Source: Patescibacteria group bacterium (lineage in GTDB: Bacteria; Patescibacteriota; Minisyncoccia; Phycocordibacterales; PALSA-1337). From it: a stretch of 64,000 nucleotides of DNA. Position numbers and translations under genes: made by a program. The stretch lies in the NCBI GenBank assembly GCA_038064415.1, contig JBBTTD010000002.1, positions 8,865 through 72,864 of the forward strand, read 5' to 3'. Of this stretch, positions 4,914 through 63,965 are shown piece by piece (the stretch's first letter is position 1; every line of letters starts with the position of its first letter). The notes below the pieces were generated by a model. It was not told the DNA's origin, searched no databases, and saw nothing but the letters and a program-made list of their open reading frames with translations.

Positions 4914-5069
4914 AAAAAGTGAACAGGGCGTGTGGGTATTTTTCTGAGACGAGTATGCGATTGGTGCGTCAGTCTATTGTATGGCAAGGCAGACATTCTT
5001 GGCAGACCACGAAATTGGAAGACGAATACGCAGTCTCAGAAAAATACCCACACACCCTGTTCACTTTTT
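4914..5069. repeat. Long near-perfect inverted repeat (37-bp arms, 1 mismatch, 82-nt spacer); candidate structured RNA or MITE-like element
   Basis: Arm 4914-4950 (AAAAAGTGAACAGGGCGTGTGGGTATTTTTCTGAGAC) is the reverse complement of 5033-5069 except for one C/A mismatch. It lies in the GC-richer 426-nt gap between two minus-strand genes. A second hairpin (GATGGCGACGG...CCGTCGCCGTC) sits at ~4822-4880. Confidence 0.6.
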
Positions 5070-49806: not shown

Positions 49807-49859
49807 AAATGTACATTACTACTGTTAAGACAGAAAGACAATGACTGCTCTATATTATA

Positions 49860-49961
49860 CGAGGTATGGTACATGAATTTCATAGGAGTTGTGCTGTATC
49901 ATCAACGAAAGTAATGTGATGGAACAACACAATTCCTATGAAATTCATGTACCATACCTCG
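49860..49961. repeat. Long inverted repeat (34-bp arms, one G-U position, 34-nt loop) in a divergent intergenic region
   Basis: Arm CGAGGTATGGTACATGAATTTCATAGGAGTTGTG (49860-49893) pairs with CACAATTCCTATGAAATTCATGTACCATACCTCG (49928-49961). One position pairs only as G-U, which hints at RNA-level structure. Confidence 0.6.
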
Positions 49962-50008
49962 TATTAAGATGCTTGCGTACTTTCATTCTACAGATTAGAC
50001 TGTTTTGC

Positions 50009-51220
50009 ATGCAACCAGAAGCTAAAATCTACTATATAACCCGTGACATAGAACGCGCCGTAGGAATGACCCCGGGGCCTAATTACCACATCATCTCTAA
50101 CAAAACCCCATATGGTGAATCTATCAAACAACAGTACCCTGATTTTGTAACCTTACTCAATAGTCCAGACGGAAGATCCTTAGGCACCGGCGCCTTAATG
50201 GAACATCCAGAAACCGTCACAATAGTGCCAAGTGGTTCAAGTGTCTTAGTTTTCAAAAATACCGCTAGAATTGAGCCAATCGTCGCGGCAAAAGGTTGGA
50301 AAATGATAAATCCAAAAGCTACCCTATCAGAAACGGTTGAAAATAAAATCAGTCAGGTTGAATGGCTAGGCGAACTGGGTAAAAAATATCTACCAACGCA
50401 TAACATCATAGTCGCTAGACGTTTGACTTGGACCGGTGAACCATTTGTCTTGCAATGGGCGCACGGACATACGGGTGGCGGAACTATTTTGGTCCGTTCT
50501 GAAGCTGAATTGAAATCTCTTCAGCAAAAATTTCCAGAAAGAATGACTAGGCGAACGACATATATTCAAGGGCCGTCTTTTACCATAAACGCGATCGTAG
50601 CCGCGGACAAAATCTTGGTTGGCAACATCAGTTACCAAATCACTGGCTTGGCGCCATTCACGGACAATGCGTTCAGTACTGTCGGTAATGATTGGGCTGT
50701 GCCAAATACCTTACTAAATACCGATGAAATTGAATATATAGAGACGATGGTCAGTGACATTGGAAAAAAATTAAATATTTCCGGTTGGCGTGGTCTTTAT
50801 GGTGTTGATGTGATCAAGGATGACAAGCGCGACACTATTCATTTGATTGAAATCAACGCTAGACAACCAGCTTCAACAAGCTTTGAATCATTTCTGCAAA
50901 ATGAGAATCGCGTAAAAGGTGACGATGGATTTACCACTTTTGAGACTCATCTAAAAGCCATGTTGGGAGAAAAAATTGATAAGCCATTAATTCCGGTAAA
51001 TGACGGAGCACAGATAATCCAACGAATCACGAGATTGAAAAGAGATGTCAATCATAAAATAAAAAATTCACTTGAACTTTCTGGATACCAAGCTGTTATT
51101 TATCAAAACACAGAATACAACACTGATCTGATTAGGATTCAGAGTTTAAAAAATATCACGGAGGGAAATGGAAAACTTAATGAGAATGGCAGAAAGATAG
51201 TTAGTATAATTTCTGATTAA
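50009..51220 (+). CDS. ATP-grasp domain protein
   Basis: The track ORF starts at 49889 inside the inverted repeat, so it is trimmed to Met41 (MQPEAK, ATG at 50009-50011). The C-terminal GLYGVDVIKDDKRDTIHLIEINARQ is an ATP-grasp signature. Confidence 0.6.
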   Translation: MQPEAKIYYITRDIERAVGMTPGPNYHIISNKTPYGESIKQQYPDFVTLLNSPDGRSLGTGALMEHPETVTIVPSGSSVLVFKNTARIEPIVAAKGWKMINPKATLSETVENKISQVEWLGELGKKYLPTHNIIVARRLTWTGEPFVLQWAHGHTGGGTILVRSEAELKSLQQKFPERMTRRTTYIQGPSFTINAIVAADKILVGNISYQITGLAPFTDNAFSTVGNDWAVPNTLLNTDEIEYIETMVSDIGKKLNISGWRGLYGVDVIKDDKRDTIHLIEINARQPASTSFESFLQNENRVKGDDGFTTFETHLKAMLGEKIDKPLIPVNDGAQIIQRITRLKRDVNHKIKNSLELSGYQAVIYQNTEYNTDLIRIQSLKNITEGNGKLNENGRKIVSIISD

Positions 51221-53040: not shown

Positions 53041-53197
53041 GGAAGCATGGAATAGTTTGTATTTTTATTGCCGAGGACTGTTTGAACGACTATAAATTGC
53101 TTGATAAAATGCGAATGACGTTTCTAGAGTATTTTATCAAGCAATTTAAGAAGTGAGTTCCGCAGGCACATAAAAATACAAACTATTCCATGCTTCC
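53041..53197 (+). ncRNA. Candidate structured RNA / palindromic element, copy A (nested perfect inverted repeats plus conserved blocks shared with copy B)
   Basis: Outer 28-bp perfect arms at 53041-53068 and 53170-53197. Inner 16-bp perfect arms at 53095-53110 and 53131-53146. Conserved blocks TGCCGAGGACTGTTTGAACGACTA, GCGAATGACG and GAGTTCCGCAGGCAC are shared with 60570-60735 (opposite strand), with compensatory changes in the inner stem. Confidence 0.45.
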
Positions 53198-55170: not shown

Positions 55171-56634
55171 ATGACAAAAAATTCTGTTCAAAAAATACCC
55201 GCGCACCTCCACATCATCGGCATCTGCGGTGTCGCTACTAGTGCCTTGGCAATTGCTTTTCACAAGAAGGGCGTAAAAGTGACCGGAAGCGATAAGGGAT
55301 TTTTTCCTCCAGTTTCAATTGAATTAGAGAAACAAAAAATTGAGTTCTACGCTGGTTGGCATCCAGAAAAGATGGTCGCGAATGGTAGACCGGATACTAT
55401 TATAATCGGCGGTGGCGGAACTAGTCCTTCAAATCCCGAAATTATTTACGCCAAAGAACATAACATTTCTGTTTATTCATACGCGGAAATTCTACAAAAA
55501 TATTTCATCAAAAAAAATTCAATCGTTGTGACAGGAACCTGGGGAAAAACAACCATTTCCGCCATGCTTTCATTCGTTCTTTTGAGAGCCAAAATGGATC
55601 CAAGTTATTTTACCGGCGGACTTTCACTTTCTCATGATACCGGCGCGTTGTCCGATTCAAATTGGAGTGTGGTTGAAGGCGATGAATATCAAGTTTCAAT
55701 TTCTGATCATAGACCAAAATTTGTCTACTATTCCCCTACTTATCTAATTTTGACTTCAGTGTCTTGGGATCATGCTGATTTATATCCAACAGAAAAGGCA
55801 TATTTTGATGAATTCAGAAATTTAGTCAATAAAATTCCAGAAAATGGAAAAATCGTTGCTTGTATTGATAATGATGGAGTGAAAAAAATTATTGGAGACA
55901 AATTAGAATCTGGCGAAAGAATCATTACTTATGGAAAAACTGCCGGTACAAATTATCAATATGATTCAGTCATTCCGACAAAAAATGGCTTGGATTTCAT
56001 AATTGAATCAGCGCGGGGTAGACCAGCGCACGCGTCATTCAAGATTCACTCGCCAATGCTCGGTCGCTTCAATGCTGAAAATATCACCGCAGTATTCGCT
56101 ATGGCTAGTGAAGTTGGGATCAAACCGGAAAAAATAATCAAAGCTATTGCTGAATTCAAAGGAATAAAACGCCGATTTGAGAAACGGTTTGAAGGTGAAA
56201 TAACCGTCATGGATTGTCACGCTCCAACTCCCGAAAAAGCAGCATCGGTGTTGGAAAATATCAAAGAAGTATATAAAAATAAAATAATCGCGGTTTATGA
56301 ACCGAATATCGGCGGACGACAAAGAAGTTCCGCAGGAATGTATGATGGCGCCTTTAAAGATGCTGATATCGTGATTGTCCCGCGATTAACAAAACTAAAG
56401 ATTGAGCGAGGTCCGACCTCGCTAGCGAGGTCCGACCTCGCTCAAAAACCTCTGGAGGGCGATGAATTGGCGCGAATTATTGGTAAAACACACACCAATG
56501 TCCACTATTTAGCAAATGATGAGGATCTAGTCACATTTTTGAAGTCAGAAGCAAAAAGAGGTGATATGATCGCCTTTCTCGGCTCACATGGCTTCAGGGG
56601 AATGATTGAGGAGACAGTAAAAAAATTCCAATAA
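55171..56634 (+). CDS. Mur ligase family: UDP-N-acetylmuramate--L-alanine ligase (MurC) or Mpl-type ligase
   Basis: N-terminus HIIGICGVATSALAIAF...VTGSD is MurC/Mpl-type. P-loop VVTGTWGKTT. The C-terminal domain carries the inserted palindrome. Confidence 0.75.
   Translation: MTKNSVQKIPAHLHIIGICGVATSALAIAFHKKGVKVTGSDKGFFPPVSIELEKQKIEFYAGWHPEKMVANGRPDTIIIGGGGTSPSNPEIIYAKEHNISVYSYAEILQKYFIKKNSIVVTGTWGKTTISAMLSFVLLRAKMDPSYFTGGLSLSHDTGALSDSNWSVVEGDEYQVSISDHRPKFVYYSPTYLILTSVSWDHADLYPTEKAYFDEFRNLVNKIPENGKIVACIDNDGVKKIIGDKLESGERIITYGKTAGTNYQYDSVIPTKNGLDFIIESARGRPAHASFKIHSPMLGRFNAENITAVFAMASEVGIKPEKIIKAIAEFKGIKRRFEKRFEGEITVMDCHAPTPEKAASVLENIKEVYKNKIIAVYEPNIGGRQRSSAGMYDGAFKDADIVIVPRLTKLKIERGPTSLARSDLAQKPLEGDELARIIGKTHTNVHYLANDEDLVTFLKSEAKRGDMIAFLGSHGFRGMIEETVKKFQ
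56402..56445. repeat. 44-bp GC-rich near-perfect palindrome (tandem 20-bp units) inserted in-frame in the Mur ligase gene
   Basis: TTGAGCGAGGTCCGACCTCGCTAGCGAGGTCCGACCTCGCTCAA matches its own reverse complement at 42 of 44 positions. ~60% GC against a ~35% background. It encodes ERGPTSLARSDLAQ. Confidence 0.6.
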
Positions 56635-56925: not shown

Positions 56926-57801
56926 ATGATTACCCCATTAGAAAAATTCAATGGTTTGGCTAAAGTTCTAAAGACTAAAGAGCTTTATTTCAAGCGCGAA
57001 GACCTACATCCATACGGCTCTCACAAGGGTCGTTCTATCCCTATAATGATTGACCACTATTACCAGAATGGTGATCGTACTTTTGCCATTTCAAGTTCAG
57101 GAAATGCGGCATTAGCGGCGGCAATACACGCTCAAAAATTAAATAACATTAAGCTGGATATCTTCGTCGGAAATCATGTATCGCCAGAAAAGTTGAAAAA
57201 AATTCGCGCGATTGCCGAAAAAAGTATTGGGAATATTCGCGTTTTGGTAAAAGAACGGCCACTTCAAGCTCTGATTCAAGCGACACAAGAAGGCGTTCGA
57301 AGCTTGCGCCAATCTACTGATGACCAGGCTTTGATGGGTTATCAATCATTAGCTGAAGAACTGACGCAAACCTATAATGCGCAAAAAATCGGCGCTATTT
57401 TTATTGGCACTTCTTCAGGCACGACTGCCCAAGCGCTCGCTCAATATTTTTTGGATAAAAAAATTCCAATTCAAGTCCATATCATCCAAACATCTTCATG
57501 TCATCCAATTTCAGAACAATTTGAACCATATGACGGGCCAGATGAACGATCAATTGCCGATGCCATCACAGACATTACCGGACACAGAAAATCAGCGCTT
57601 ATGCCTTTAATAGAAAAAACCGGCGGAAAAGGTTGGATTGCCACAAATGAAGATATTAAAACCGCGCAAAAATTGGTCAGTGAACATACTAAATTAAATA
57701 TTTCCACGAATAGCGCGCTCTCAATTGTTGGGATAATGAAGGCAAATTATGTCGGACACAAAATAGACGGCGCGATAGTTTGCATGATTTGTGGAGAATG
57801 A
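56926..57801 (+). CDS. Fold-type II PLP-dependent enzyme (cysteine synthase/CysK-like, PALP family)
   Basis: KREDLHPYGSHKGRSIPIMID matches K.E..NP.GS.KDR..L.MI, so the PLP-Lys is present. SSGNAALAAAIHAQKL matches TSGNTG.ALA..AA. 291 aa. Confidence 0.65.
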   Translation: MITPLEKFNGLAKVLKTKELYFKREDLHPYGSHKGRSIPIMIDHYYQNGDRTFAISSSGNAALAAAIHAQKLNNIKLDIFVGNHVSPEKLKKIRAIAEKSIGNIRVLVKERPLQALIQATQEGVRSLRQSTDDQALMGYQSLAEELTQTYNAQKIGAIFIGTSSGTTAQALAQYFLDKKIPIQVHIIQTSSCHPISEQFEPYDGPDERSIADAITDITGHRKSALMPLIEKTGGKGWIATNEDIKTAQKLVSEHTKLNISTNSALSIVGIMKANYVGHKIDGAIVCMICGE

Positions 57802-57809
57802 CAGTGAGA

Positions 57810-57921
57810 AACAAAGCAAGAAGCGGGTGTGAATTTTATGAAAGACTGCAATCTCTTTGCGTGGAACGCGAGACAATTATAACGGTCTTTCATAAAATTC
57901 ACACCCGCTTCTTGCTTTGTT
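57810..57921. repeat. 37-bp perfect inverted repeat (38-nt loop) exactly between convergent stop codons; candidate bidirectional terminator or structured element
   Basis: Arm 57810-57846 (AACAAAGCAAGAAGCGGGTGTGAATTTTATGAAAGAC) is the perfect reverse complement of 57885-57921. It is flanked by the PALP gene stop at 57799-57801 and the murD stop at 57930. Confidence 0.6.
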
Positions 57922-57929
57922 ACTATTTC

Positions 57930-59348
57930 TTAAATCCCCCTAACCGCCCTGACAAATCTCTCGCCTCTCTCAATTTTAGAACCATCAGCCCCACCAGCGC
58001 CAAAGCCGGGACTAAAAAGCACTCGATCACCTTTTTTCGCGTGATCCAAAGCTGACCTCACCGCTTCTTCAATGTTTGGCGCGGAATAAATCGTCAGTCC
58101 GCCAACTTCTTGCAGAATGGCGCGTTGCCTCAATGTTCCACTACCTGGAATGTTTATCAGCGTATGGACATATCTAGGCAACTCAATATAAAGAGTCCGA
58201 TAATCATGACCAACATCCGCGCCGCCAAAAATTAAAACAATATTTCTGTCTTTAGATAAAGCCATGATTCCAACTAAAGTAGCGTCAGGAGTAATGGACA
58301 TCGTATCATTATAAAACTCAATACCTTTGACTTTTTTAACTAATTCCAACCTACCTTTCAAAGATCTCCATTTGCTAAAAACATTTCGCGCGGTGTCTTC
58401 ATCGGCTTTAAAAATCTGAGCCGTCTGGAGTGCCAAAGCGGCATTTGAACGATCGTGTATACCACTACCAGAAAAACCCCAATCCGCTGGTATAAGTGAA
58501 GACTTGGTGCGCAACATTTTGGCCTTGGGCTGAAATTTCATCGCTCTAGTGGCGTCAATAATCTCGTCGGATGCCACAATATAATTGTTATATGTTTGAT
58601 ACGCTAATATTTCAAAAGGTGATGAAATGTACGAATTTTTTGAAGGTATGCTGGTAAATATCGCCACATGAGGACTGATTCGTAATGTATTTAATTCCGG
58701 CAAAATCAAATCAACTATTCGCATCAAAACAATATCGCCGCTTTTGACTTTTCTTAGATGCGCGAGAATCCCATCTGATGATTCTGGATCGAGAATAAAG
58801 AGATCCTGTGTTTCATATTCTTTACAGACTTTTTCTAAAATCGGTCCAAGAATTGAAATAACCGTGGATTTACCACAACAACCAATCACTCCGATCAGAG
58901 TTATGGGTGGCGCCAATCTAAAGAAAAGGGTTTCGGGATATTCAACGACAATAACTTTATTTCTTTCTTTATCCACGACTTTAATTTCACTTTCAGATTT
59001 TTCCGTGCTTAATTGATCACTGATATTTGATGCTTGATTATTACCATAAACCTCCTTTAAGAATGAGGAATCGCGCGGATATTCATGTGAAAGAATTATC
59101 ATATCCATGTCCAAAAGGTCTTCAGCTGGAATAGAACCGCAAACATAATTGGCCAAACCAATAGAACGAAGAAAAATCAGATGATTTTTCAAACGCGCCT
59201 CACTTTTCAAATCATATATTGAGACCCAAGCTCCGGCTTTGATCAAATATTTAACATCCTCAACCATTTCTCCATGAATACCAAGACCAATAACCGCGAT
59301 GCGTTTGCCTTTGAAATAATCACGGGAAGCCATGTAACTATTATACAA
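57930..59348 (-). CDS. murD: UDP-N-acetylmuramoylalanine--D-glutamate ligase (MurD)
   Basis: N-terminal Rossmann motif KRIAVIGLGIHG, Mur ligase P-loop LIGVIGCCGKST, and a C-terminal domain. Confidence 0.85.
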   Translation of the reverse strand: MYNSYMASRDYFKGKRIAVIGLGIHGEMVEDVKYLIKAGAWVSIYDLKSEARLKNHLIFLRSIGLANYVCGSIPAEDLLDMDMIILSHEYPRDSSFLKEVYGNNQASNISDQLSTEKSESEIKVVDKERNKVIVVEYPETLFFRLAPPITLIGVIGCCGKSTVISILGPILEKVCKEYETQDLFILDPESSDGILAHLRKVKSGDIVLMRIVDLILPELNTLRISPHVAIFTSIPSKNSYISSPFEILAYQTYNNYIVASDEIIDATRAMKFQPKAKMLRTKSSLIPADWGFSGSGIHDRSNAALALQTAQIFKADEDTARNVFSKWRSLKGRLELVKKVKGIEFYNDTMSITPDATLVGIMALSKDRNIVLIFGGADVGHDYRTLYIELPRYVHTLINIPGSGTLRQRAILQEVGGLTIYSAPNIEEAVRSALDHAKKGDRVLFSPGFGAGGADGSKIERGERFVRAVRGI

Positions 59349-59786: not shown

Positions 59787-60521
59787 TTAATAGTCCGCAC
59801 TTATACTTACAAATGCGTCTTTGGTGATGATGACATGATCTAAAACACGAATGCCCAGGATCTTCCCTGCCTGAACAAGCTGTCTGGTAATTTGAATATC
59901 TTCGGCACTTGGAGTAACTTCACCCGAAGGATGATTGTGAGCTAAAATAACTGCGACAGCATTGCGTTCAATGGCTGGACGAAAGACTTCGCGAGCATGA
60001 ATAACATTGGCATTGACTGTCCCAATTGAAATAACTTCGTCAGCAATCACGCGGTTGTGACTATTGAGATACAATCCACGAAGATGTTCTTTGGGTAAAT
60101 TGCGCATATCAACGAGATAGTCATACGCGTCTTTGGCGTTACGAATTGTCTTGAATCCCGAATCAGAGCGCTGATATAAACGCCTTCCTAGTTCACCTAC
60201 GGCAACAATAGAACACGCCTTGACGATCGGTATGTTTAACTCTTTGGATAATTTCTCGGGATTACATTCGGCGAAAACGCTTTTCTCGCCATATTCACGA
60301 ACAATGCGCGTGGACATCTCCAAGACATCTTCTTTGGTAGTCCCAGTTACAAGCAGAAGGGTTGTAAGCTCCGCAATAGAAAGCGACTCTGGACCGTGAG
60401 TCAAGAGTTTTTCTCGTGGCTTCTCGCTCGAAGGCAGGTCCCGAAACATGAGTGGGTACTCACGCGGGCTCCGATCAAGAATGAGCGTGGTATCGGGTAT
60501 GATGTACATGCTCTTCTGCAT
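59787..60521 (-). CDS. radC: RadC-family JAB/MPN domain protein
   Basis: JAMM motif ILAHNHPSGEVTPSAEDIQIT, an HhH-like N-terminus, and a C-terminal LDHVII. Confidence 0.85.
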   Translation of the reverse strand: MQKSMYIIPDTTLILDRSPREYPLMFRDLPSSEKPREKLLTHGPESLSIAELTTLLLVTGTTKEDVLEMSTRIVREYGEKSVFAECNPEKLSKELNIPIVKACSIVAVGELGRRLYQRSDSGFKTIRNAKDAYDYLVDMRNLPKEHLRGLYLNSHNRVIADEVISIGTVNANVIHAREVFRPAIERNAVAVILAHNHPSGEVTPSAEDIQITRQLVQAGKILGIRVLDHVIITKDAFVSISADY

Positions 60522-60569
60522 GAAAACAATTATAACATAGTGAGAGAAAAATCAAGAAAAAGAAACCTG

Positions 60570-60735
60570 ACAAGGTATGCATTTTTATGTGCCTGCGGAA
60601 CTCGCTCCTGAAATTTCTAGGTAAAAGGCTCAGGAATTACTCAAATCTTCGACTTGGTAATTCCAACGCCATTCGCCTTTTACCAAGAAATTTCTAGTCG
60701 CTCAAACAGTCCTCGGCAATAAAAATGCATACCTT
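60570..60735 (-). ncRNA. Candidate structured RNA / palindromic element, copy B (opposite strand to copy A)
   Basis: Outer 18-bp perfect arms at 60570-60587 and 60718-60735. Inner 19-bp arms have one mismatch. An extra internal hairpin GGAATTAC...GTAATTCC is present. In minus orientation it shares TGCCGAGGACTGTTTGAGCGACTA, CGAATGGCG and GAGTTCCGCAGGCAC with copy A. Confidence 0.45.
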
Positions 60736-60757
60736 GCCGAGTTTCTTTAGCTTTTTA

Positions 60758-62191
60758 CTACAACGTCTCCACTAAAATAAAGTTTGTCTCACTAGATGTC
60801 CCAAACGGCATTCCTGCGACTATCACCACCTTATCCCCTTTTTTGACTATTTCATTATCAAGAGTAACTTTGCGCACAATCTCCATAATTTCTTCAACTG
60901 TCTTAAATGTTGGCGCAACTATCGGATAGCAACCATAAGTCAACATCAATTTATTGACATTCTCTTGAGCGTCAGAAAGCGCCAGAACATGCTCAGCGGG
61001 CCTATAACGAGCAATCATACGAGCGCTCCTACCCGTTCGCGTCAGAGCCACGATTAGAGCCGCACCGACGTTGTGGGCGGCTCTAACGGCAGATTGGGAA
61101 ACGACATCTGTAACACCGTGAGATCCCTCATATTCGGCAATTGTGTCCCGTGTATAAACTTCTTTTTCCACGCGACATGCAATACGCGTCATAACCTTGA
61201 CTGCCTCTACAGGAAAATCACCCAAAGTCGTCTCTTCGGAAAGCATGATCGCGTCCGTGCCGTCAATGATCGCGTTGGCAATATCCGAGACTTCAGCTCT
61301 TGTCGGTACTGGATTTTTTATCATTGACTCAAGCATTTGAGTGGCAGTTATTACCGGCTTGCCAATAGCATTGCATTTACTGATAATCATTTTCTGAACC
61401 AACGGGACTTCTTCAGCGGGAATTTCAATAGCTAGATCACCACGAGCAATCATTATCCCATCAGCCACCGAAATAATTTCATCAATGCATTTCAGAGCTT
61501 CGGGTGTTTCAATCTTTGCGATAATGTGTGCATTGGATCCGGCTTTATTAAGAATCTTTCTAAGATCATCAACATCAGAAGCGCGACGGACAAAAGACAA
61601 TGCGACAAAATCAACTTTATTTTTAATTCCAAACTCAACATCTTCTTTATCTTTGTCAGTCAGGGCTGAAATAGAAAGATTCGCCCCTGGCACATTGACT
61701 CCTTTGCGTCCAGATAGACGACCACCAATCATGACTTTGGTAATGATGTCGTTGCCTTTGATTTCCACGACTTCCAACCGTTTGGTGCCATCTTGGAGCA
61801 TAATGATAGTTCCTGGTTTCACTTCATACGGTAGTCGTGGATAATTTATATGCACTTTATCTTCAGTCCCCTCAATTTCATCGGTCGTTAATGTGAAGGT
61901 CTGACCTTCATGCAACATGATCATATTATCTCTGAAAGTCCCGATGCGGATTTTCGGTCCGCAAAGATCTTGTAAAATCGCCACGGTCTTGCCAGATTTT
62001 TTCATAATCTCGTGAATTGACTCCACGCGTTTCTGGTGTTCAGAAAAATCACCGTGCGAAAAATTCAATCTGACCACATTCATGCCCGCATCAACCATTT
62101 CGGCCATCTTTTCTTTGGTCTCTGTATTTGGGCCAATAGTACAAACGATTTTTGTTTTTTTGCCGAGATTCATGATAAAAGTGTGTGGCAA
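60758..62191 (-). CDS. pyk: Pyruvate kinase
   Basis: KIVCTIGPNTETKE, VVRLNFSHG, and MIARGDLAIEIP..V..QK.II..C. 477 aa. Confidence 0.9.
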   Translation of the reverse strand: MPHTFIMNLGKKTKIVCTIGPNTETKEKMAEMVDAGMNVVRLNFSHGDFSEHQKRVESIHEIMKKSGKTVAILQDLCGPKIRIGTFRDNMIMLHEGQTFTLTTDEIEGTEDKVHINYPRLPYEVKPGTIIMLQDGTKRLEVVEIKGNDIITKVMIGGRLSGRKGVNVPGANLSISALTDKDKEDVEFGIKNKVDFVALSFVRRASDVDDLRKILNKAGSNAHIIAKIETPEALKCIDEIISVADGIMIARGDLAIEIPAEEVPLVQKMIISKCNAIGKPVITATQMLESMIKNPVPTRAEVSDIANAIIDGTDAIMLSEETTLGDFPVEAVKVMTRIACRVEKEVYTRDTIAEYEGSHGVTDVVSQSAVRAAHNVGAALIVALTRTGRSARMIARYRPAEHVLALSDAQENVNKLMLTYGCYPIVAPTFKTVEEIMEIVRKVTLDNEIVKKGDKVVIVAGMPFGTSSETNFILVETL

Positions 62192-63892: not shown

Positions 63893-63965
63893 TGCGCGCA
63901 CTAGGATTCGAACCTAGGACCCCACCAGTATCAGTGGTGTGCTCTACCAACTGAGCTATGCGCGC
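63893..63965 (-). tRNA. tRNA-Ile (anticodon GAT)
   Basis: The reverse complement folds as a cloverleaf: acceptor GCGCGCA/TGCGCGC, D-arm GCTC-AGTTGGTA-GAGC, anticodon arm CACCA-CTGATAC-TGGTG (anticodon GAT, A37), variable loop GGGTC, T-arm CTAGG-TTCGAAT-CCTAG, discriminator A. No CCA is encoded. Confidence 0.85.

Follow-up and report, generated by a model that had tools for sequence, protein, structure and literature searches.

A long hairpin between pyk and radC

The 64-kb stretch of DNA studied here (the window) belongs to a contig of a Patescibacteria genome, a member of the candidate phyla radiation (CPR), from Hainich groundwater. The feature in question is a long hairpin-forming element that lies, as the original prediction had stated, between the genes encoding pyruvate kinase (pyk, 60758-62191) and RadC (59787-60521), both on the minus strand. 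We refer to it as copy B; copy A, another member of the same family, is located 7.5 kb away on the plus strand, and each of the two copies is co-oriented with its flanking genes. All coordinates are positions in the window, and copy B is read on the minus strand. A gap of 4 nt separates its start from the pyk stop codon, and one of about 20 nt separates its end from the conserved promoter region of radC (Table 1).

From 5' to 3', copy B is composed of an outer arm, TTGCCGAGGACTGTTTGA, GCGACTAGAAATTTC, a 20-bp inner stem, an apical region (made of GGCGAATGGCGTT and an extra 8-bp hairpin with a 16-nt loop), the return strand, GAGTTCCGCAGGCAC and the other outer arm. The 18-bp outer arms that had been predicted pair without a single mismatch and can be extended to 35 nt, at 86% complementarity. 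Folded as RNA, copy B reaches -95.3 kcal/mol (z = -10.4), and none of 200 shuffled sequences folds as well.

Table 1. Parts of copy B, the neighbouring promoter box and the related copy A in the 64-kb window
Feature	Position	Strand	Remarks
Copy B, whole long hairpin	60554-60753	minus	Preceded by the pyk stop codon (60758-60760) and followed by the radC promoter; inverted repeat with 35-nt arms at 86%
Copy B, 5' outer arm (element orientation)	60719-60753	minus	Inner 18 nt (60719-60736) perfectly paired
Copy B, 3' outer arm	60554-60588	minus	Inner 18 nt (60571-60588) perfectly paired; followed by a T-rich tract (minus strand)
Copy B, core block 1, TTGCCGAGGACTGTTTGA	60702-60719	minus	Invariant in all members recovered with block 1; holds the unpaired CUGUUUGA
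Copy B, core block 2, GAGTTCCGCAGGCAC	60589-60603	minus	Pairs with block 1 via CC/GG and GGA/UCC; loops GA/GCA and CUGUUUGA/GAGU remain
Copy B, inner stem, 5' strand (extended P2)	60675-60694	minus	Homologous to the inner stem of copy A, with compensatory changes
Copy B, inner stem, 3' strand	60610-60629	minus	Inverted repeat
Copy B, extra apical hairpin, GGAATTAC / GTAATTCC, 16-nt loop	60633-60664	minus	Not in copy A
Copy B, apical segment GGCGAATGGCGTT	60665-60677	minus	Counterpart TGCGAATGACGTT in copy A; not in the L140 copies
TATAAT box, outside the element	60529-60534	minus	7 nt before the radC ATG (60519-60521); same place in L136, L138 and L140
Copy A, same family	53041-53197	plus	28-bp perfect outer arms; between a 256-aa open reading frame (ORF) and mraY; site empty in L138

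Copy B is outside the 5' untranslated region (UTR) of radC, as the conserved TATAAT box of this gene lies downstream of the element. The box was read directly from the sequence, and a consensus scan called no full sigma-70 promoter there. Any transcript of copy B would thus be a pyk read-through product forming an extremely stable 3' hairpin, not a radC leader. In four genomes the box is only 7-8 nt before the radC start codon (window 60519-60534; L136 9975-10003; L138 4178-4205; L140 5300-5317), a distance which suggests that the radC mRNA may be leaderless or nearly so.

Two related copies in the window

Copy A also folds far better than expected (-78.1 kcal/mol as RNA, z = -13.7, 0 of 200 shuffles as good). 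The two copies share the same conserved blocks, in agreement with the original prediction: TATTGCCGAGGACTGTTTGAGCGACTAGAAATTTC (60687-60721, minus) shows 3 mismatches to positions 53066-53100 of copy A, GAGTTCCGCAGGCACATAAAAAT (60581-60603, minus) is identical to positions 53155-53177, and no match at all was obtained in 100 shuffles. The inner stems are about 80% identical, and their differences are compensated. The outer arms had been described as unrelated in the two copies. This holds for their distal parts, which align weakly (about 60-65%), but not next to the core, where 12 of 14 nt are identical and both differences are compensated. Similarly, the additional apical hairpin of copy B is real but smaller than the announced 40 nt or so, as it spans 32 nt in total and corresponds to a net insertion of 29 nt relative to copy A. 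When a covariance model of the core is run on the whole window, exactly two copies are returned (59.7 and 50.4 bits), the next match scoring 12.6 bits.

An invariant core between covarying helices

All copies have the same core layout, (G)CC - GA - GGA - CUGUUUGA - P2 hairpin - GAGU - UCC - GCA - GG(C). Depending on the copy, 7, 13, 15, 27, 34, 68 or 98 nt separate the two blocks, P2 ranging from a 7-nt GCGAAGC to the 98 nt of copy B. When 17 distinct sequences are aligned on the basis of a model, the eight core pairs modelled are 94% paired, and four of them change on both sides. The covariation score of the core is 0.287, versus 0.108 in shuffled alignments (none of 500 shuffles reaches the observed value), and slid controls are all much lower. 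Copies recovered independently of the exact 18-mer reveal the letters that may change: P1a occurs as GCC/GGC, GUC/GAC or AUC/GAU (the last two in L140), UGUUUGA is replaced by GUUGUCUGA in L140 copy 1, and GGA/UCC becomes CGA/UCG in the degenerate second core of a gut repeat described below.

The region is non-coding, as no ORF is common to the copies and the spacings between blocks do not follow multiples of three. Reading the 18-mer of block 1 as a micro-ORF (TTG CCG AGG ACT GTT TGA) does give an in-frame TTG...TGA inside the invariant sequence, but no Shine-Dalgarno sequence precedes the TTG and conservation tracks the base-pairing pattern, so that a protein-coding function can be virtually discounted.

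On its own, the minimal 39-nt core has an ordinary stability (z = -1.0 as RNA and -0.1 as DNA), and it is therefore kept for its sequence and not for its stability. In all copies but one it lies in the tip region of a hairpin far longer than itself; the exception (L120) is a bare core without long arms. The survival of an asymmetric core inside such palindromes argues that it is under purifying selection.

Distribution of the family

An 18-mer scan of 185,579 species-representative genomes returned 24 matches, which is about the chance expectation; in nine of these 24, block 2 is also correctly placed. These nine loci belong to a Saccharibacteria metagenome-assembled genome (L018), a gammaproteobacterial one (L015) and seven contigs labelled Phascolarctobacterium or Fusicatenibacter. 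Metagenomes yielded 104 loci, most of them from human gut, with up to three copies per contig; among those of other origin are soil contigs L051 (two copies), L059 and L070, and a Mu-like prophage region (L120). In 98 extracted places the 18-mer has block 2 in its vicinity, and the core is present in at least 100 public loci. The shared blocks, whose loss in an alignment of more copies had been proposed as a refutation of the family, are thus kept in more than 100 further copies. The flanking helices differ among the public copies and are often perfectly paired.

No copy was found in plasmid, phage or E. coli collections (where BLAST searches with the core gave no or only chance matches), and pattern scans of viral contigs returned 0 matches. 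Literature searches by sequence string and by topic identified no description of the element. A recurrent protein family was also sought around the copies and not found: the neighbours are ordinary housekeeping genes, with no consistent class of downstream gene.

Some copies are embedded in larger arrangements. In Phascolarctobacterium-type gut contigs (L087 5200-6260 and equivalents), the core is part of a multi-hairpin non-coding repeat of about 650 nt, which has small terminator-like hairpins at both ends and contains, about 300 nt away and in opposite orientation, the degenerate second core (CGA-UGUUUGAGCGCAGCGAGUUUCG) mentioned above. On soil contig L051 (2900-3925), two inverted variants of about 190 nt bracket a gene whose low GC content gives it a foreign look and which weakly matches DUF4760; within each unit, conserved asymmetric segments (GTAGCGACTGGAGGCCTGCGGCTTG / CAAGACGGGGTGTCAGGCCGACTGGAGCGGAA) are interspersed with helices that are not the same in the two units.

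Gain and loss among close relatives

RadC homologues were used to reach syntenic contigs (DUF5671-pyk-radC-...-mraY) of relatives with 76-90% RadC identity. The pyk-radC spacer is empty in two of them, where it measures 34 nt (L136, 85% RadC identity) and 46 nt (L138, 78%) and joins the pyk stop codon almost directly to the TATAAT box located 7-8 nt before the radC ATG. The site of copy A is likewise an empty 49-nt spacer in L138, and no core is present anywhere in the 12-20 kb available for L133 (89% RadC identity) or L141-L147. In the closest relative (L140, 90% RadC identity), the pyk-radC spacer holds a variant with 31-bp perfect arms of different sequence, and a second copy occupies the DUF5671-pyk spacer, which is only 17 nt long in the window. 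As relatives have empty sites and L140 carries a copy at a site that is empty in the window, the element has been gained and lost, i.e. it is mobile. The absence of the insertion from close relatives also identifies copy B as a mobile palindromic repeat rather than as a UTR element conserved with pyk or radC. The original prediction of a 3' UTR or terminator-embedded RNA thus survives in part only: copy B could be transcribed with the 3' region of pyk, but not as a conserved UTR element.

Four copies were compared in this clade (A, B, L140-1 and L140-2); they are related as a mosaic. Copy B shares a TAGAAAT inner stem with L140-1, and its apical insert and part of its arm (CTCGGC...ATG...T-run) with L140-2, in which an insert related to the extra hairpin (ATTACCA...) is found. 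All four begin 3-4 nt past a stop codon, which is the least harmful insertion point in spacers this short. Gut contigs provide another example of such polymorphism, as a hairpin module of about 265 nt is found at differing positions and in opposite orientations within one intergenic region across samples.

The pyk-radC spacer is an insertion hot spot in this clade. A KilA-N domain gene is located between pyk and radC in L144 (3084-3926), and elsewhere in L133 (4030-4857).

Perfect but variable arms

The outer arms of the four clade copies measure 28, 18 (plus 17 imperfect), 31 and 31 bp and are nearly all Watson-Crick paired. They differ in sequence and yet align weakly with one another, and arms in all copies but L120 have the base composition of the host. 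As the four copies are mosaically related, sharing inner stems, inserts and parts of arms, the arms must be inherited with the element and diverge fast. We rejected the possibility that they are guides or duplications of target flanks, since BLAST searches of the arms with short words match only the arms themselves, and an origin from the target is ruled out in the soil copies, where conserved segments enclose the variable helices.

Template switching at quasi-palindromes is an established mechanism for the correction of one arm against the other. The near-pure Watson-Crick pairing of the outer arms points to a process acting at the DNA level, and we infer that such arm-against-arm correction better explains perfect pairing combined with fast turnover than compensatory mutation does.

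Comparison with known families and systems

When the whole window was compared with Rfam 15 (4227 models), the sole match at the gathering score was a tRNA gene (63893-63965, minus). At E <= 10, positions 60500-60800 gave only sub-threshold matches to plant or animal miRNA-type hairpins, and nothing was found on the element in the short-core loci L047, L120, L018, L015, L070 and L059. The families not encountered include radC, mraW, hammerhead, twister, pistol, hatchet, 6S and Y RNA. The core nonetheless resembles small self-cleaving ribozymes (twister, hammerhead, pistol, hatchet) and orphan Rfam motifs, which also have a core of about 40-60 nt, with two internal loops and invariant letters between covarying helices, peripheral helices of variable length and a patchy cross-phylum distribution, often with several copies in or near mobile DNA; it differs from them in that it matches none of the models in sequence or structure. 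A hammerhead-like reading of CUGUUUGA...GAG (superficially CUGANGA...GAAA) was rejected, the topology being a two-way and not a three-way junction. A kink-turn comparison at the level of sequence shows GA...GA flanking P2 in every copy, with a bulge of 5-6 nt, (C)UGUUU, and GU (2 nt) separating GA from UCC; a kink-turn has a 3-nt bulge, and its GA is in direct contact with the C helix.

Like MITEs (transposable elements of the miniature inverted-repeat type), the element is small, non-coding, multi-copy and polymorphic for presence or absence. Unlike them, it has no conserved terminal inverted repeats, as arm sequences vary among A, B, L140-1 and L140-2 (only AAG/CTT at the hairpin base and a T-run close to the core recur), and no direct repeat is seen when these four junctions are compared with empty sites. 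No insertion sequence with related ends was detected in any locus. It can also be likened to the REP, BIME and REPIN sequences mobilised by RAYT (Y1, IS200-like) transposases, which are short, non-autonomous extragenic palindromes that work as hairpins of one single strand, abound at gene ends and influence mRNA 3' ends. In REPINs, however, conserved REP units form the base and arms while the tip varies, whereas here the tip is conserved and the arms vary, and neither of the defining features of REPINs (a GTAG-type 5' motif and a linked RAYT gene) was found for the element. IS200/IS605 and REP/RAYT systems act on single-stranded DNA (ssDNA) hairpins; a link to RAYT or IS200 found no support, as there is no Y1 homologue near any copy or elsewhere in the 64 kb available for this genome.

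ERIC/IRU sequences of Enterobacteria and Correia (NEMIS) elements of Neisseria are transcribed intergenic palindromic repeats. By description, they resemble the element as imperfect palindromes of 100-160 bp that are intergenic, multi-copy, polymorphic among strains, located near gene ends and able to form long hairpins when co-transcribed, and ERIC is described with a conserved central part. Each of these families occurs within a single genus or family and is conserved at its ends, with 26-bp terminal inverted repeats and a TA duplication in the case of Correia. On the same descriptive basis, the element differs from them by a centre that is invariant across phyla, by hypervariable arms and by the lack of a visible duplication. 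We class it as a new family in the broad group of small palindromic repeats that are intergenic and mobile.

Other candidates were examined and rejected. Integron attC sites are excluded by inspection, as no R'' RYYYAAC / R' GTTRRRY boxes are present at the base of the hairpin, GTTTGAG violates RRR, and the conservation pattern is reversed; nor did the attC, dif and oriT consensus sequences match by inspection. A retron msr-msd was dismissed, there being no reverse transcriptase domain among the called neighbours and no msr hairpin between outer and inner stems. A sigma-54 or sigma-70 promoter within the core would have a wrong spacing or a site that is not conserved.

Nature of the element

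We consider that copy B is best explained as one insertion of a small (about 160-200 bp), non-coding and non-autonomous mobile palindromic element, a reading to which we give a probability of roughly 0.45. Its long helices would turn over quickly in sequence while staying almost perfectly Watson-Crick paired, presumably because the DNA of the two arms is homogenised, one against the other, through intrastrand template switching, for instance, or mismatch correction in a snapped-back hairpin. The asymmetric core (CC-GA-GGA-CUGUUUGA-P2 hairpin-GAGU-UCC-GCA-GG) would be the selected functional module, probably exposed when one particular strand, as RNA or ssDNA, folds on itself, and it most likely serves as a sequence-specific recognition site for a trans-acting protein that would mobilise or process the element.

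Several observations weigh against this explanation. No transposase, reverse transcriptase or other candidate partner is located beside any copy, and the only Y1 transposase seen is carried by a relative devoid of the element (L133). The four clade junctions, compared with empty sites, show no target-site duplication or conserved cleavage motif, only AAG...CTT recurring at the hairpin base. A conserved centre with variable arms is the reverse of what is observed in classical MITEs and REPINs. Recent polymorphisms of the gut copies show no bias between G.T and A.C (19 vs 17 events), and all five CPR copies are co-oriented with their flanking genes, which would fit an RNA role equally well. Finally, the search word was the exact 18-mer of block 1, so that part of the apparent invariance of this block across phyla comes from the search itself, which set no condition on block 2, the loops or the topology.

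The main competing reading is that the core belongs to a class of structured RNAs with a function, be it as small ribozyme, aptamer or protein-binding module, the mobile hairpin only spreading the core or the long hairpins being scaffolding helices. Conserved internal loops split by covarying helices, a patchy spread across phyla and multiple copies give the family the look of small self-cleaving ribozyme classes: invariant nucleotides are concentrated in two internal loops, the P1, P1a and P2 helices covary, P2 varies in length from 7 to 98 nt with the core untouched, the soil copies alternate variable perfect helices with conserved asymmetric loops along a rod of about 190 nt, and L120 does without long arms altogether. 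In ten elements, stacked G.U (or G.T) pairs number 24 in the core-sense strand and 9 in the antisense strand, and the sense strand folds more stably in all ten, although part of this difference comes from the shared core and the ten are thus not independent. The co-orientation of the CPR copies with their flanking genes favours a link to transcription over one to replication. Against an RNA, the orientation relative to neighbouring genes is antisense in L015 and in many gut copies, downstream genes belong to no consistent class, Rfam returned nothing for the element in four contexts at the gathering score or E <= 10, and outer arms of 18-31 bp with nearly no G.U pair would be unusual for RNA helices kept by selection alone. 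The P2 apex also argues in the other direction: it is GCGCAGC in 58 loci, GCGAAGC in 18 and GCGTAGC in 2, in three lineages (gut copies, L015 and L120), and GCGNAGC mini-hairpins are reported to be extraordinarily stable as DNA and far less so as RNA (PMC13037366). We therefore retain from the modular variation typical of RNA families, which the original prediction had invoked, the family itself with its conserved blocks, covarying helices and modular insertions, while its RNA nature is doubtful and, on balance, somewhat unlikely.

The same apex recalls ssDNA signals, as GCGNAGC mini-hairpins occur at the origin of phage G4, at RSF1010 ssiA and at phage N4 promoters (PMC13037366). Copy B could thus carry a priming or ssDNA-initiation site, or a recognition hairpin for an HUH-type (Y1 or Rep) protein on the lagging-strand template, and the perfect Watson-Crick palindromes of the arms, the strand-specific folding and the precedent of IS200/IS605 and REP/RAYT are in line with this possibility. 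Initiation hairpins (G4 origin, RSF1010 ssiA, N4 early promoters, rolling-circle ssoA) are likewise long and imperfect; what counts in them is the loop together with some short conserved stretches, the stems having only to pair. These signals are also strand-specific. However, they sit on phages and plasmids, whereas the element was absent from the plasmid, phage and viral collections searched; no HUH gene is linked to any copy; the GC-GNA-GC apex is missing from copies A and B, whose P2 is extended; and these two copies, being opposed 7.5 kb apart, could share the lagging-strand template only with an origin or terminus between them. GC skew in the window follows the gene strand and gives no replication signal, and nearest-neighbour energies for DNA and RNA do not separate the RNA and ssDNA readings. 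An ssDNA signal is improbable in our view. Still less credible is a plain intrinsic terminator or mRNA-stabilising hairpin of pyk with a core devoid of further function. The location of copy B immediately after the pyk stop codon, its T-rich tract and the presence of other long perfect hairpins at gene ends in this genome would suit such a role; T-rich tails follow the outer arm in copy B, L018 and L140-2, but not in copy A, a terminator scan called nothing at either copy, relatives do without the element, and a terminator would neither need nor preserve about 30 invariant paired and unpaired letters across phyla.

Beyond the mobile palindromic element itself, the core of about 40 nt may be an undescribed functional RNA or ssDNA motif common to CPR bacteria, Bacillota, Proteobacteria and soil bacteria, a broader proposal that we advance tentatively and with the odds against it. 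The core could be a new self-processing or protein-recruiting RNA, or the ssDNA signal of a new class of snap-back-hairpin mobile elements with a conserved centre and variable arms. If functional, it would be among the very few short motifs kept letter for letter from ultra-small groundwater CPR bacteria to human-gut Bacillota, and one that the catalogue of RNA families does not contain. Its layout is the reverse of that usual in bacterial palindromic repeats, with an invariant centre and arms that are hypervariable yet perfectly paired, and it offers a tractable system for two questions, namely how long palindromes stay perfect during sequence turnover and which enzyme recognises the tip of the hairpin.

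Other observations

The element disturbs both assembly and gene calling, and a model of it would improve the annotation of CPR and gut genomes. Two Logan contigs (L003 and L004) end inside the element (position 1-100), and a spurious 54-aa gene is called on the opposite strand inside L140 copy 1 (L140 5136-5300).

The Y1 transposase of L133 is an IS200-like protein of 152 aa (PF01797, L133 19966-20424), with which tblastn matched nothing in the 64 kb of this genome that the window covers, nor in the 146 other loci.

The window also contains long palindromes without the core of copies A and B. The hairpin at 4914-5069 (37-nt arms at 97% complementarity, 82-nt centre, z = -9.9) has arms ending in ...TATTTTTCTGAGAC, followed by GA GUAU ... 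AUAC GCA and then GTCTCAGAAAAATA; it shares the frame of copies A and B (T-run, 3-bp helix, GA/GCA loop) but not their inner core, and no other copy of it is present in the 147 loci. A palindrome with 48-nt arms at 92% and a 12-nt loop (49857-49964) overlaps the listed start of an ORF (49889-51220), and a 44-nt perfect palindrome, TTGAGCGAGGTCCGACCTCGCT / AGCGAGGTCCGACCTCGCTCAA, is located at 56402-56445. Lastly, a perfect hairpin of about 46 bp (57807-57924) separates the convergent PALP (56926-57801, plus) and Mur-ligase (57930-59348, minus) genes; in relatives, the same spacer holds strongly diverged perfect hairpins (46 bp in L138, about 30 bp in L140), a short one in L133, and none in L136, L141 and L144.

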